This document shows positions 9,287-16,082 of a DNA stretch of 28,705 nt, in pieces (positions within the stretch are counted from its first letter, which is position 1; each line of letters opens with the position of its first letter). The notes under the pieces were generated by a model, which was given only the letters and a program-made list of their open reading frames with translations, was not told where the DNA came from and made no database searches. The DNA is from Mycobacteriales bacterium (GTDB lineage Bacteria > Actinomycetota > Actinomycetes > DATGDX01), in NCBI GenBank assembly GCA_035310665.1, contig DATGDX010000012.1, positions 1 to 28,705 of the forward strand. The letters run 5' to 3'. The position numbers and the translations under genes were made by a program.

Positions 9287-10222
9287 TCAGCCGCGGGCCC
9301 GGGGGTGCGCCGCGGCGTACACCTCCCGCAGCCGGTCGACCGTGACCAGGGTGTACACCTGCGTCGTCGTCACCGAGGCGTGCCCGAGCAGCTCCTGGAC
9401 CACGCGCACGTCCGCGCCGCCGTCCAGCAGGTGCGTCGCGAACGAGTGGCGCAGCGTGTGCGGGGACACGCTGGCCGCCAGCCCCGCGCGTTCCGCCGCC
9501 GCGCGCAGGACGGCCCACCCGCCCTGGCGGGTCAGCCGCCCGCCGCGCGCGTTGAGGAACAGGGCCGGGCCGCCGGAGCCGATGACGGCGAGCGCGGGGC
9601 GGGCGCGGACCAGGTAGGCGTCGACCGCGGCGCGCGCGAACCGCCCGACGGGCACCATCCGCTCCTTGCCGCCCTTGCCGAGCAGGCGGACCACGCCCCG
9701 GTCCAGGTCGACGTCGTCGACGTCGAGACCGACCGCCTCCGAGATGCGCGCCCCGGTGCCGTACAGCAGCTCGAGCAGGGCGCGGTCGCGCAGGCCGCGG
9801 GGGTCGCCCGGGGGGCCGGCGGCGTCGAGCAGCCGCTCGACCTCCTCGACCGCGATCGCCTTGGGCAGCCGCCGCGGCGGGGTCGGCGGGCGCACCGCGC
9901 GGGCCGGGTCGGCGCCGGTCAGCCCCTCGCGTACGGCGAACCGGTGCAGCCCGCGCACGGCGACGACGGCGCGCCCGGCCGACGCGGCCGACAGCGGTGG
10001 GTGGCTGTCGTCGCCCGCGCGCAGGGCGGCGAGAAACGTCGCCACGTCGGCCTCGTCGACCTCCGCCAGCGAGCGGCGGCCGCGGCGGGTCAGCTCGGCG
10101 AGGTAGCGGCGCAGGTCACGGCGGTAGGACAGGAGCGTGTTGCGGGCGACGCCGCGTTCCACGGACAGGTGGTCGAGATAGGTGCGGACCGCGGCGAGCA
10201 GCTCGGGGGGCGGGTCGCTCAG
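9287..10222 (-). CDS. xerD: Tyrosine recombinase XerD
   Basis: [43 protein letters not shown] (R), GKGGKER (K), [11 protein letters not shown] (HxxR), LLGHA, TTQVY (Y). The apparent start is CTG at 10222 (see findings). Confidence 0.95.
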
Positions 10223-11334
10223 GCGAGGACCTCCGGCAGCGACACGCAGGGCAGCCCGTGCGCCTCCGCCACCGGCGCGTAGGTCAGCCGGCCGTCGACC
10301 GCGTTGACTCCGGCCGCGAGCGCGGCGTCCCGGTGGACCGCCTCGGCCAGGCCGTTGTTGGCGATCTCCAGGGCGTACGGCAGCGTCACGTTGGTCAGGG
10401 CGTACGTCGAGGTGTGCGGCACCGCGCCGGGCATGTTGGCGACGCAGTAGAACACCGAGTTCGCGACCGGGAACGTGGGCTCGGAGTGCGTGGTCGGCCG
10501 CGACGACTCGAAGCAACCGCCCTGGTCGATCGAGATGTCGACGAGGACACTGCCCGGCTTCATCCGGGCGACGAGGCTGTCCCGGACGAGCACCGGCGCC
10601 TTCGCGCCCGCGACGAGAACCGCGCCGATCACCAGGTCGGCGTCGATGCAGGCCTTCTCGATCTCGTACGCGTTCGACGCCACGGTCTGCAGGTGTCCCT
10701 GGTAGATGCGGTCCGCCTGCCGCAGCTTCTCGACGTTCTTGTCCAGCAGCAGCACCTCGGCCTGCATGCCGAGCGCGATCGCGGCGGCGTTCATGCCGGA
10801 CACCCCGGCGCCGAGGACCACGACCTTGGCGGCGTAGACCCCCGACACGCCGCCGACGAGCACGCCGCGGCCGCCGCCCTGCCGCATGAGGTGGTAGGCG
10901 CCGACCTGGGGGGCGAGCCGACCGGCGACCTCCGACATGGGCGCGAGCAGGGGCAGCGAGCCGTCGGGCAGCTGCACGGTCTCGTAGGCGACCGCGGTGG
11001 TGCCGGAAGCGAGCACCGCGTCCGTACACTCGCGCGAGGCGGCCAGGTGCAGGTAGGTGAACAGCACCTGATCACGCCGCAGCCGCGGGTACTCCTCCGG
11101 GATCGGCTCCTTGACCTTCAGCACCAGGTCGGTTTCGGCCCACACGTCGTCGGCCGAACCGACGATCGAGGCGCCGGCGGCGGCGAAGTCCTCGTCGGGG
11201 AGGGCCGAGCCGACCCCCGCCTCTTTCTCGATCACCACGCTGTGCCCCGCGGTCACGAGCTCGTGCACCCCGGCCGGCGTGATCGCGACGCGGTACTCGT
11301 TGTTCTTCAGCTCGCAGGGGATGCCGACCTTCAC
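10219..11334 (-). CDS. ald: Alanine dehydrogenase
   Basis: [55 protein letters not shown], 371 aa. GAGGA SD before GTG 11334. Confidence 0.97.
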
Positions 11335-11399
11335 GGCGGTCCTCGCCTTCGTCCGGCCCCGGCCCCGCGACCGGGAGGTCTGCCGCATGGGCCGCGCCG

Positions 11400-11405
11400 A
11401 GTCTA
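11400..11405 (-). promoter_or_regulatory. Putative -10 (TAGACT) for ald-xerD
   Basis: TANNNT in the NUDIX-ald gap, about 65 nt upstream of the ald start. Confidence 0.5.
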
Positions 11406-11451
11406 GGCGGCGATGCGCGGTTCGGGCAGCTCCCGGCGCGGATGCTCGGAT

Positions 11452-12102
11452 TCAGGACGGTGATCCGGGGCGCTCGGGCCACGGCGCGTCAACGGGGCGC
11501 AGCCCGGCGAACCCGGCACGCCGCGCCGCGGCGGCGGCGAGGATGCCCATGACCGCGGTGGGGTTGTGCAGCTCGCCGGCGAGCACCTTGCGCACGGCCT
11601 CGTCCAGCCGCAGCCAGGCGACCGGCATGTCGTGCTCCTCGTGCTCGCCCTGGTGACGCTCGCCCTCCGCGGGCGAGAGGTCGCGCGCGAGGTAGATGCG
11701 CAACGCCTCGTCGGCCATGCCCGGGCTGGTGAACGCGTCGACCAGGACGTCCCAGCGCCCGGCGCGGTAGTGGGCCTCCTCGAAGAGCTCCCGCTGCGCG
11801 GTCGCGAGGGACGGCTCCCCGGCGACGTCGAGGATCCCCGCCGGCGGTTCCCACAGCATCCGGCCGACCGGGTGCCGGTACTGCTGGACGAGCAGCACGC
11901 GCTCGTCCGGGTCCAGCGCGATCACCCCGACCGCCCCGGGGTGGACGACGACGTCGCGGGCGGCGCTGGCGCCGTCCGGCATCCGCACCTCGTCGGTGCG
12001 CACGGCGATCAGGCGACCGCGGAAGCGCTCGGTGCTGCGCAGAACCGGGAGCGCCTCCGGCGTGTCGTGCAGCTCGCCGCTGCCGTTCGTCCCGGACGCC
12101 AT
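11452..12102 (-). CDS. NUDIX hydrolase (ADP-ribose pyrophosphatase-like, Rv1700-like)
   Basis: RDVVVHPGAV, QYRHPV, Nudix box PAGILDVAGEPSLATAQRELFEEA, SPGM.DE, EEHDM. Confidence 0.92.
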   Translation of the reverse strand: MASGTNGSGELHDTPEALPVLRSTERFRGRLIAVRTDEVRMPDGASAARDVVVHPGAVGVIALDPDERVLLVQQYRHPVGRMLWEPPAGILDVAGEPSLATAQRELFEEAHYRAGRWDVLVDAFTSPGMADEALRIYLARDLSPAEGERHQGEHEEHDMPVAWLRLDEAVRKVLAGELHNPTAVMGILAAAAARRAGFAGLRPVDAPWPERPGSPS

Positions 12103-12107
12103 CACGG

Positions 12108-13811
<1,704 letters not shown>

Positions 13812-13871
13812 GCGGGCTCCCGTGTCGATGCGGCGCGACTACCTACCGAACCACGGGAGATCAGGCTAACA
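13812..13871 (-). promoter_or_regulatory. pyrG promoter (extended -10 TGT-TAGCCT) and SD-overlapping leader hairpin
   Basis: -10 at 13868-13863. The inverted repeat CTCCCGTG (13859-13852) / CACGGGAG (13824-13817) covers the SD. Inner helix TCGGT/ATCGA. Confidence 0.7.
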
Positions 13872-16082
13872 CCCGGACCGACCGCGAACCCCTTTGGTTG
13901 GGTGGACGGCGCACGCGGCGGGCGTGGCGGGCCGCGGACGGTGCGGCCAGGGGCGGTCGCGGGCGGACAGGGACACCGCGATCGCGCTGGGAATCGCGAC
14001 GCTCATCGCGAGGGCGGGAACGGCGACGCCGGAGTCGTTGACCAGGAACCCGACGACCCCGAGGACCAGCACCGAGAGCAGCCCGGCGCGCAGCGCCGGC
14101 TCGTGCGCGAACGCCCGCCGCAGCCCGCTGGTCGGCCAGCGCAGCACCGCGCCGAGGAACGCCACGGCCACCGGCACCAGCAGGGTGAGGACGCTGGTGG
14201 TGAGCAGGTGCAGGTTCGACTCGGCCTTGCGCCGCACGATCGTCGCCGCCCCGCCGTGGAGGAGCTGGCCGACGAAGCGCCCGACGTGGGTGCGCGCGTC
14301 CGGCGGGCGGGCGTAGTCGGCGAGCGCGAACGCCGTGACGACCAGCACCCCGGCGGCGGTCGCCGCGGCCAGCCGGCGCCAGGACAGCCGGGCGCCGGTG
14401 AGCAGCAGGCCGAGGACCGTGAACGCCGGCACCAGCGCGATCACGCCGCCGAAGTCGCTGCCCCACGTCGGGCTGCCGTCCAGCACGACGGCGACCGTGC
14501 CGACGGTCGCGACGGTCAGCAGCGCGATGCGCCGGCTCCGCCCGGCCGCGAGCGCCGCGGTGAGCAGCAGCGCGCCAGTGGCGAACACCGCGTACGAGAC
14601 GTTGCCGAACCCGGCGAACCGCCCGGCCACCAGCGGCGAATACCCGGCCAGGCTGGACATCTGCAGCCGCGCGCCGGTGAGCACGTCGAGGCTGAGCACG
14701 GCGAACGTGAGCCCGGCGACGGCGCCGACCGGCCCGAGCAGCCGCTGCCGCCACGGCCCGGCGAGCGCCACCGTCAGGACCGCGGCGTCGGCGACGGCGA
14801 CCGCGGCGAGCAGCACCGGCAGCGGGTGCGCGTGGCGCCACCATGGGACCAGCTGGGCGAGGTAGGTGGCGACCGGAGCGGCCGCGAACGCGAGCGCGGC
14901 GACCCGGGCCGCGCCGAGCACCCGGTCGCGGTGGCGGCCGCGTTCGAGGCGGCGCAACGCGGTGAACGCGAGCAGGTACAGGACCGCCTGCGCCCCGACG
15001 AGCAGTGCGAAGAACGGCGGCACGAGCCGGCGCTGCTCCTGCGCCGCCCGGTCGAGGTCGACCAGGCGGGCGACGTGCGCGGGCAACGACTGCGCCCGCG
15101 GGCCCGGGGTCGGCTGCCAGCGCTGGCCCACGACGGACGGCGGCGGCTCGAGTCCGAGCAGGGCGAGCACGGTGGGGGCGACGTCGATGAGCTGGACGTA
15201 GGGAGCGCGCCGGGTGGACGCGCTGCGCAGCTCCCCGCCCGAGAACCGGGGACCGGCCGCGACGGCGACGTGCAGCCGCGGCCGCTCGGCCCCGACCTCG
15301 GAGACGCCGGCGACGAGCACGGTGCCGTGGGGGCCGGCGACGGCGGTGCCCGCGGCGACCGCGGCGTCGATACCCCGCCACGCCGCGGCGGTGCGCCCCC
15401 GGACCGCGAGGTCGTCGGCGGCGATGATGGTGAGCGGGCACGGGCGGAGCGTGGTGGACGAGCCCGGCGACAGGAGGTGGGCGGCCGAGGCCCGCGGCAG
15501 GTGACCCGGGACGCGCCCGCGCGAGTCGGCGCCCGTCAACGCCGCCCCGGGGCCGACGGTGGTGACGCAGTCGCCGGCGGCGCGCACGACGGTGCCCAGG
15601 GCGCCGAGGGTGCTCCCGAACTCCAGGCGCCGGTTGGCCGCGACGATCGCGGGCCAGGAGCGGATCCGCCCCTCCCCCACCACCGACGCGGGGACGGGGG
15701 CGCAGCGGGGGCCCGCCTCGGGGCCGCGCGCGCGGTTGCCGCCGCCGAGCGTCAGCCAGCCGTCGGGAGGGCAGGTGCGGGCCCGCGCGGCGCGCACGGT
15801 GAGCGTCCCCACGCTGCCCCGGTCGGCCAGCCGCCACAACGCCGGGGTCCGCGCCGGCGACACGTCGTCCCAGCGCAGGCCCGCCGCGCCGACGACGACG
15901 ACGGGCCCCGGGGGGCCCGGGTCGGCGCGGGCGACGCTTCCCCTCGCGGCGAGCAGCGTCGGCGTGAGCAGCCCGGCCACGAGCCCGGCGAGCAGGACCA
16001 GGACGACGACGCGCCAGTGGGGCGGCGGGGTCCGGCGCCCGCGCACCGGCCCTCGCACCGGCCCTCTCATCGGCCCTCTCAC
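13866..16082 (-). CDS. Large envelope protein: N-terminal signal/TM, extracytoplasmic alkaline-phosphatase-superfamily-like domain, about 10 C-terminal TM helices (738 aa)
   Basis: VVVVGAAGLRWDDV, TCPPDGWLTLG and QLIDVAPTVLALLG resemble AlkP/sulfatase-fold segments. The TM region has polar motifs GRFAGFGN, GSDFGG and NDSG. GTG 16082 overlaps the GT stop. Fold assigned by eye only. Confidence 0.7.
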   Translation of the reverse strand: MRGPMRGPVRGPVRGRRTPPPHWRVVVLVLLAGLVAGLLTPTLLAARGSVARADPGPPGPVVVVGAAGLRWDDVSPARTPALWRLADRGSVGTLTVRAARARTCPPDGWLTLGGGNRARGPEAGPRCAPVPASVVGEGRIRSWPAIVAANRRLEFGSTLGALGTVVRAAGDCVTTVGPGAALTGADSRGRVPGHLPRASAAHLLSPGSSTTLRPCPLTIIAADDLAVRGRTAAAWRGIDAAVAAGTAVAGPHGTVLVAGVSEVGAERPRLHVAVAAGPRFSGGELRSASTRRAPYVQLIDVAPTVLALLGLEPPPSVVGQRWQPTPGPRAQSLPAHVARLVDLDRAAQEQRRLVPPFFALLVGAQAVLYLLAFTALRRLERGRHRDRVLGAARVAALAFAAAPVATYLAQLVPWWRHAHPLPVLLAAVAVADAAVLTVALAGPWRQRLLGPVGAVAGLTFAVLSLDVLTGARLQMSSLAGYSPLVAGRFAGFGNVSYAVFATGALLLTAALAAGRSRRIALLTVATVGTVAVVLDGSPTWGSDFGGVIALVPAFTVLGLLLTGARLSWRRLAAATAAGVLVVTAFALADYARPPDARTHVGRFVGQLLHGGAATIVRRKAESNLHLLTTSVLTLLVPVAVAFLGAVLRWPTSGLRRAFAHEPALRAGLLSVLVLGVVGFLVNDSGVAVPALAMSVAIPSAIAVSLSARDRPWPHRPRPATPAACAVHPTKGVRGRSGC

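Follow-up and report, generated by a model that had tools for sequence, protein, structure and literature searches.

CTP synthase, the product of pyrG, is an essential enzyme and a target of engineering for nucleoside production. It is also a validated drug target in M. tuberculosis (PMC4521081). The pyrG locus of a Mycobacteriales bacterium, contained within a window of 28,705 nucleotides (the whole stretch of DNA that was analysed), raises the question of whether the synthesis of this enzyme may be adjusted by its own product, through the selection of the transcription start site. Such a control was proposed in an earlier note on the same DNA, which was aware of no description for actinobacterial pyrG; in agreement with this, a literature search retrieved no paper on a start-site switch of this type for actinobacterial pyrG, and no corresponding family is present in Rfam. 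The only regulatory input to actinobacterial pyrG found by the search is activation by WhiA in Streptomyces. The kind of mechanism is already known from pyrC and pyrD.

The features of the locus, all on the minus strand, are reported below. Positions 1 to 12 are counted from the first base after the -10 hexamer; SD stands for Shine-Dalgarno.

13866..16082, minus: upstream co-directional membrane ORF, about 738 aa, GC3 of 0.92-1.0 in frame, ending inside the pyrG -10
13869..13871, minus: extended -10 element TGT (TG-n), T conserved in 91% and G in 93% of relatives
13863..13868, minus: -10 hexamer TAGCCT, of the TANNNT type, at equal distance to CCCG in 103 of 105 relatives
13858..13862, minus: five-base spacer GATCT, positions 1-5 after the -10, whose C4-U5 lengthen the complementarity to the SD (CUCCC)
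13855..13857, minus: C6, C7 and C8, proposed CTP-dependent alternative starts and 5' end of P1
13854, minus: G9, predicted main GTP-initiated transcription start; the homologous G is mapped in C. glutamicum and M. tuberculosis
13852..13857, minus: P1 5' arm CCCGUG, pairing with CACGGG
13851-13850, minus: GU bulge between the P1 5' arm and P2
13825..13849, minus: inner hairpin P2, UCGGU (13849-13845) with AUCGA (13829-13825), with a small inner helix, as folded by RNAfold
13819..13824, minus: P1 3' arm CACGGG, extending to CACGGGAG (13824-13817)
13817..13821, minus: SD sequence GGGAG, separated from TTG by the 5-nt spacer CCCGC
13809..13811, minus: TTG start codon of pyrG, the first possible start downstream of an in-frame stop
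12108..13811, minus: pyrG, CTP synthase, 567 aa (Pfam CTP_synth_N, 1.8e-121; GATase, 1.9e-32)

All the coordinates given in the earlier note for the promoter, the CCC run, G9, the pairing arms, the SD and the TTG codon were borne out on the minus strand. The layout is of the pyrC type: candidate C starts are located at about position 7, with a G two bases downstream (TAGCCT-N5-CCCG), and a hairpin using the 5'-terminal C's and covering the SD is present, CCCGUG/CACGGG overlapping GGGAG. The start also features a run of three identical bases (CCC, 13857-13855). The resulting leader is 43-46 nt long. A consensus scan found no sigma-70 site at the pyrG promoter, because a -35 is absent. The TAG stop codon of the upstream ORF (13868-13866, minus strand), whose frame is set by GC3, forms the first half of the -10 hexamer, and 54 bases separate this stop from the pyrG start; in the relatives, TGATAG or TGTTAG likewise provide stops in two frames. 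The upstream ORF of about 738 aa matched no Pfam family, and no terminator-like site was detected in 13300-14500, including the interval between this ORF and pyrG. By using Rfam 15, which includes the PyrR binding site, no match to the leader was obtained, either in the window (E up to 10) or in the loci of 12 relatives (E up to 0.5).

The ability of the leader to fold as proposed was analyzed by using RNAfold. For the transcript starting at C6, the minimum free energy (MFE) structure coincides exactly with the hairpin claimed in the earlier note, at -17.6 kcal/mol. When compared with dinucleotide shuffles, the window hairpin shows a z-score of +0.61, 140 out of 200 shuffles folding as well; on single-sequence folding the structure is therefore no better than random, but it is conserved throughout the class, and it is this conservation across relatives, the window sequence alone being insufficient, that places the feature beyond chance. 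Folding of 13790-13880 also reveals an 8-bp outer stem, CUCCCGUG/CACGGGAG, which matters only for transcripts begun upstream.

In the window, the SD is not clearly freed in the G9 transcript, the MFE of which (-16.5 kcal/mol) corresponds to an alternative fold of nearly equal energy, in which the SD is still paired. In order to compare the start sites, the energy of forcing the SD single-stranded was computed for each of them. In the window, the opening costs are 5.3 (C6), 4.9 (C7), 4.9 (C8) and 4.7 kcal/mol (G9), so that C and G starts are predicted to differ only slightly in SD occlusion (by 0.2-0.6 kcal/mol). Mean costs over 88 leaders are 7.2, 5.5, 4.5 and 4.2 kcal/mol, in the same order, and in most short leaders C6 and G9 differ by 3-7 kcal/mol. 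P1 is composed of 6 pairs only in the window, and the inner region P2 is weak (z +0.6); P2 of the relatives is mostly a clean hairpin of 6-10 bp, differing in sequence, with a mean z of -1.5 and with 41% of 49 leaders below -1.64. The window element is a weak example of a strong family.

At 13817-13828, the window and one relative (L012) read GACACGGGAG, where most relatives read GACCACGGGAG, and the seventh P1 pair is consequently lost in the window. The same change creates the sequence GACAC, which we take to be the short recognition motif of WhiA; its presence here is probably due to chance.

Conservation within the class was evaluated on pyrG loci taken from about 40 families (one genome per family), together with 80 named loci, including Streptomyces, Nonomuraea, Actinomadura, Microbispora, Pseudonocardia, Lentzea, Aeromicrobium, Nocardioides, Nanopelagicales, Sporichthyaceae, Frankiales and Cellulomonas; Pseudonocardiales and Propionibacteriales are represented too. 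Among 105 regions anchored at the N-terminus, which represent about 40 families, 103 carry the pattern TANNNT-N5-(C/T)CC-(G/A)TG upstream of pyrG, as do all of 11 additional genomes of the class. Two unpublished genomes (L002 and L014), one truncated and the other lacking an anchor, added no data, and the conclusions depend neither on these nor on G006, G041, G086, G126 and G158. One of the two exceptions is a contig ending 45 bases upstream; the other carries CATACT in place of TANNNT, with CCCGTGG unchanged. The chance expectation of the pattern in a G+C-rich stretch of 260 bases is estimated at about 0.001. The spacing between TANNNT and CCG is invariant and the five intervening bases are variable, neither these nor the -35 region showing conservation among relatives. 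Positions 7 and 8 are C in all the relatives bearing the motif, and their position 6 carries either C (91%) or T (9%). Several bases outside the search pattern are conserved as well, namely the T (91%) and G (93%) of the extended -10 and the G's found at positions 1 (92%) and 12 (90%).

The second conserved element, C(A/G)CGG(G)AG, joins a sequence complementary to CCGUG with the SD, and is found in 88 of 89 leadered loci, at 39-145 nt from the 5' motif. The start codon follows after 3-11 bases, mostly 5-9, and 78 out of 88 leadered relatives use TTG. An RNAalifold analysis of 37 short leaders produced, as the sole consensus helix, P1 in the form CCCGUGG/CCACGGG. Substitutions within this helix amount to nine one-sided wobble changes, and compensatory double changes were seen in none of its 7 pairs; both arms are constrained by other roles, as start region and as SD, and the pairing thus draws its support only from conservation and one-sided wobble. 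The comparison with relatives suggested in the earlier note gave a strongly positive answer for the -10 to CCG spacing and for the hairpin over the SD (conserved in 103/105 and 88/89, respectively), although compensatory changes in P1 are missing.

Other roles of the motif were also considered. Within its own genome the motif is no commoner than in shuffles, the sole other strict match preceding a short-chain dehydrogenase gene, and no clear excess was seen in the genomes of two relatives; a repeat or regulon signal was rejected on these grounds. A conserved leader peptide starting at the 5' GUG was rejected as well, since its reading frame is distributed at random with respect to that of pyrG (10/5/7; 20/22/24), and the encoded peptides show no conservation.

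About 14 lineages use the GTG or ATG of the motif directly as the start codon of pyrG, in frame and without an SD (L005, L011, L027, L030, L031, L036, L039, L059, L066, L083, L090, L096, L109 and, probably, L062). This leaderless RTG sits 6-10 codons before the conserved N-terminus KH(I/L/V)F. In mycobacteria, leaderless translation requires an RTG exactly at the 5' end of the mRNA (Shell 2015); as pyrG is essential, position 9 must be a start site in these lineages. They retain CC at positions 7-8 and lack the 3' arm. CC is present at these positions in just 16 of the 124 TANNNT-N8-RTG sites (13%) of the window's genome; in this genome, which has 76% G+C, it is not rare for a leaderless start to be preceded by a C-rich spacer. 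The leaderless mRNAs of actinobacteria (Cortes 2013; Shell 2015) likewise display TANNNT, no SD and an RTG at the predicted start. Compared with the usual leaderless genes of this kind, pyrG of the 14 or so relatives is unusual for a spacing that is always 8 and for the CC preceding the RTG, while pyrG of the window differs in being leadered.

Published start maps place G9 among real transcription starts in two relatives. In C. glutamicum, the start of cg1606 is tgtgtTATGCTggggttccG, with a spacing of 8, that is G9, nine bases after TATGCT (Pfeifer-Sancar 2013, PMC3890552); in the start table of the same study a spacing of 6-7 is modal, and 8 is found in a minority of cases. In M. tuberculosis, the start of Rv1699 was mapped at 1923748, a G located nine bases after the T of TAGGGT (Shell 2015), the hexamer being taken from the promoter sequence of Cortes 2013. 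In this latter study, starts are reported at 1923745 (exponential cells) and 1923744 (starved cells), corresponding to positions 6 and 5, whereas for the neighbour Rv1700 the two studies report an identical start. Because the published starts fall at position 9 or at 5-6 after the -10, the promoter and its start window are real. From these maps, G9 is the usual start under laboratory growth, and the disagreement of the two M. tuberculosis maps is the sole sign of start heterogeneity. No C7 or C8 start appears in the published actinobacterial pyrG maps, the two clean ones showing G9 only. For S. coelicolor SCO1776, the primary start lies 125 nt before the ATG (Jeong 2016); in 34 Streptomyces loci the distance from motif to ATG ranges between 67 and 138 nt, several being at 121-126, and SCO1776 is consistent by distance only.

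Two loci of one family (L182 and L183, f42), featuring a mycobacteria-like PyrG N-terminus (LRKHPQTATKH), read TAGGGT-gagat-TCC-GTGGG, which supports TCC at positions 6-8 in M. tuberculosis, for which the papers print flanking bases only. The 246-nt leader of C. glutamicum keeps CCACGGAGG, followed 5 nt later by a GTG that opens a frame about 25 codons long, at a great distance from the annotated ATG (PMC3890552); this frame may be a relic of an ancestral start or a uORF. The published C. glutamicum promoter sequence found no match among 401 genomes of the order.

Transcribed sequences were also sought in environmental data. The source organism is common in soil metagenomes, and RNA runs contain at most 10% of its sampled words (assembled contigs only). 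Four RNA runs yielded conserved coding fragments of many organisms and a single contig over the promoter; such contigs carry no start-site information. This contig (X15, 239 nt, 6 differences), from a soil metatranscriptome, covers 13674-13911, spanning the pyrG promoter into the upstream gene, and derives either from read-through transcripts of a close relative or from DNA present in the library. Given this contig across the promoter, part of the pyrG transcripts may also come from read-through of the upstream gene.

The best-supported interpretation, held with moderate confidence, is the one proposed in the earlier note: the pyrG promoter-leader would be a pyrC-type start-site switch, sensitive to the CTP/GTP ratio, in which starts at C would complete an SD-occluding helix. 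The extended -10 TGT-TAGCCT, with no -35, places two or three C's at the positions preferred by the polymerase (6-8), followed by G9. If the supply of CTP is low compared with that of GTP, transcription would start at G9; the RNA would begin with GUG, P1 would be too short to hold, the SD GGGAG would be open and the weak TTG start would be used. When CTP is plentiful, we infer that starts would move to C7 or C8 (or C6), and that the added C's would complete P1 (CCCGUG/CACGGG), which pairs the first G's of the SD and would lower translation. CTP synthase would in this way be fed back by its own product, with no repressor protein. In the leaderless relatives, to which the interpretation is here extended, the same choice would produce an mRNA that either begins exactly at GUG or AUG, and is translatable, or carries two extra C's. 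Leadered G9 transcripts begin with GUG as well, so 5'-end ribosome loading may itself help to open the leader.

E. coli pyrC uses a C7/G9 start geometry. Start selection at pyrC and pyrD of E. coli and Salmonella was reportedly worked out by Wilson et al. in 1992, Sorensen et al. in 1993 and Liu and Turnbough in 1994. In these genes, nucleotide-sensitive start selection is coupled to translational control (E. coli / Salmonella; summary in PMC4491880). The pyrG leader resembles pyrC in the C's at about position 7 and the G at position 9, in the 5' C's completing a hairpin whose 3' arm lies over a G-rich SD, and, as proposed, in dispensing with a repressor protein. It differs in that the regulated gene is pyrG, the effector being the enzyme's own product, if the proposal is correct; in the inner hairpin P2 interposed between the arms, with leaders of up to about 145 nt; and in the leaderless and terminator-type outputs of relatives, unknown for pyrC. 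The actinobacterial switch is a prediction from sequence.

Alternative explanations have to be weighed against this start-site switch. The main rival, possible but unlikely, is a constitutive promoter that senses no CTP: G9 would be the sole start, and pyrimidines at 6-8 would block early starts, in order for the RNA to begin precisely at GUG; the CCC/GGG complementarity would silence pyrG translation only on read-through RNA, or a 5' stem would stabilise the mRNA. The documentation of G9 starts only in the cleanest maps and the lack of covariation in P1 are in line with this design. So is the extension of the complementarity to CUCCC, upstream of the likely starts, which in the window and some relatives gives a stem of 8-9 bp in read-through RNA only; the upstream gene and pyrG are not separated by a terminator, and the RNA-library contig spans the promoter. 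A T, however, would block early starts equally, yet C7 and C8 are invariant also in the AT-richer Nanopelagicales, in C. glutamicum and in E. coli, and position 9 is a suboptimal place to start, given the modal spacing of 6-7 in C. glutamicum. Moreover, the motif is kept in Streptomyces, and in S. coelicolor the neighbour gene is divergent, which makes read-through impossible there; finally, the two M. tuberculosis data sets differ only at the pyrG promoter.

CTP might also be sensed through reiterative transcription on the CCC run, slippage at high CTP adding C's rather than building the hairpin, with the result that transcripts are released, or that a 5' C-tail pairs better with the G-rich SD. 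This reaction is known to require three identical bases in a row at the start, and E. coli pyrG, which has the same CCC, shows 10.1% slippage (PMC12709180); non-templated C's misaligned on TTTCC could, we infer, explain why the Cortes start lies 3-4 nt upstream of Shell's. The idea appears improbable, as C tracts slip poorly because of their strong dG:rC hybrids (PMC12709180), position 6 is T in 9% of the relatives, leaving CC only, and the conserved CCAC beside the SD is left unexplained; the reaction may coexist with the start-site switch. A further proposal, that CCCGTGG and CCACGGG are two operator half-sites for a DNA-binding regulator, is hardly credible. The arms do form a perfect inverted repeat, and WhiA binds upstream of S. 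venezuelae pyrG, giving its largest ChIP peak, and activates it (PMC3781837). The peak, however, maps upstream of the promoter and off the repeats, about 200 bp ahead of the start codon (PMC3781837); the arms lie anywhere between about 25 and 140 bp apart, a range incompatible with a dimeric operator, making a protein operator unlikely, and leaderless lineages retain the 5' motif without the 3' arm.

The start-site switch preferred here was also compared with the pyrG control of B. subtilis, reportedly described by Meng, Turnbough and Switzer in 2004 as CTP-sensitive reiterative G addition combined with antitermination. The two systems share the gene, the effector CTP (proposed here) and a protein-free sensing at the first transcribed bases. 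The B. subtilis system needs a GGGC start and a leader terminator, whereas the window has CCCG and no terminator-like site in 13300-14500, and does not conform to attenuation of the B. subtilis type. One family from another class of Actinomycetota (f50; L118, L156) features TACCGT-N5-GGGC before pyrG, which resembles the GGGC of B. subtilis pyrG.

The distribution of the motif outside the class was evaluated on 58 pyrG loci, which represent about 40 families in other classes of Actinomycetota. TANNNT-N5-(C/T)CCG was found in at least 10 families, with differing downstream parts. SD-pairing stems follow the motif in three families (f66, f75, f80), and pyrG starts are leaderless or nearly so in four others (f56, f69, f73, f81). 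In f52 (L120, L160, L161), a hairpin begins at CCCG, holds the SD and is followed by U7 and then by the start codon; in f59 (L127, L169), a hairpin also begins at CCCG, its U6 tract lying far ahead of the start, and no SD was observed within the stem. Judged from these sequences, the promoter module seems in both families to be joined to a terminator-like output. Upstream of pyrG, E. coli K-12 reads TATACT-gcttt-CCCG, and a 2025 study gives a slippage of 10.1% for the CCC initiation region of this promoter (PMC12709180). The core geometry is identical to that of the window (TAGCCT-gatct-CCCG), at the same gene; unlike in the window, no obvious CGGG/SD complement to CCCG is seen by eye in the E. 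coli leader.

Tentatively, TANNNT-N5-CCCG could be regarded as a portable, protein-free CTP sensor for pyrG, far older than Actinomycetes and connected to three outputs or more. These would be a hairpin that covers the ribosome-binding site, an intrinsic terminator with its 5' arm beginning at the start site, and a start codon without a leader. The greater novelty would lie in such a modular sensor, with its leaderless and terminator outputs. The leader is conserved from Streptomyces to mycobacteria and, if the start-site switch is correct, "repression without repressors" would extend to the whole class, the leaderless relatives representing a new coupling of start-site choice to translation. 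The element is also of use for annotation, since it fixes the pyrG start codon, mostly TTG, or GTG/ATG when leaderless, and marks a real promoter overlapping the stop codon of the upstream gene.

Genes for a NUDIX protein, an alanine dehydrogenase and a XerD-type integrase are found downstream of pyrG (window 9287-13428). The order pyrG-nudix-...-xerD is a conserved actinobacterial one, found also in S. coelicolor (SCO1773-1776) and M. tuberculosis (Rv1699-1701).
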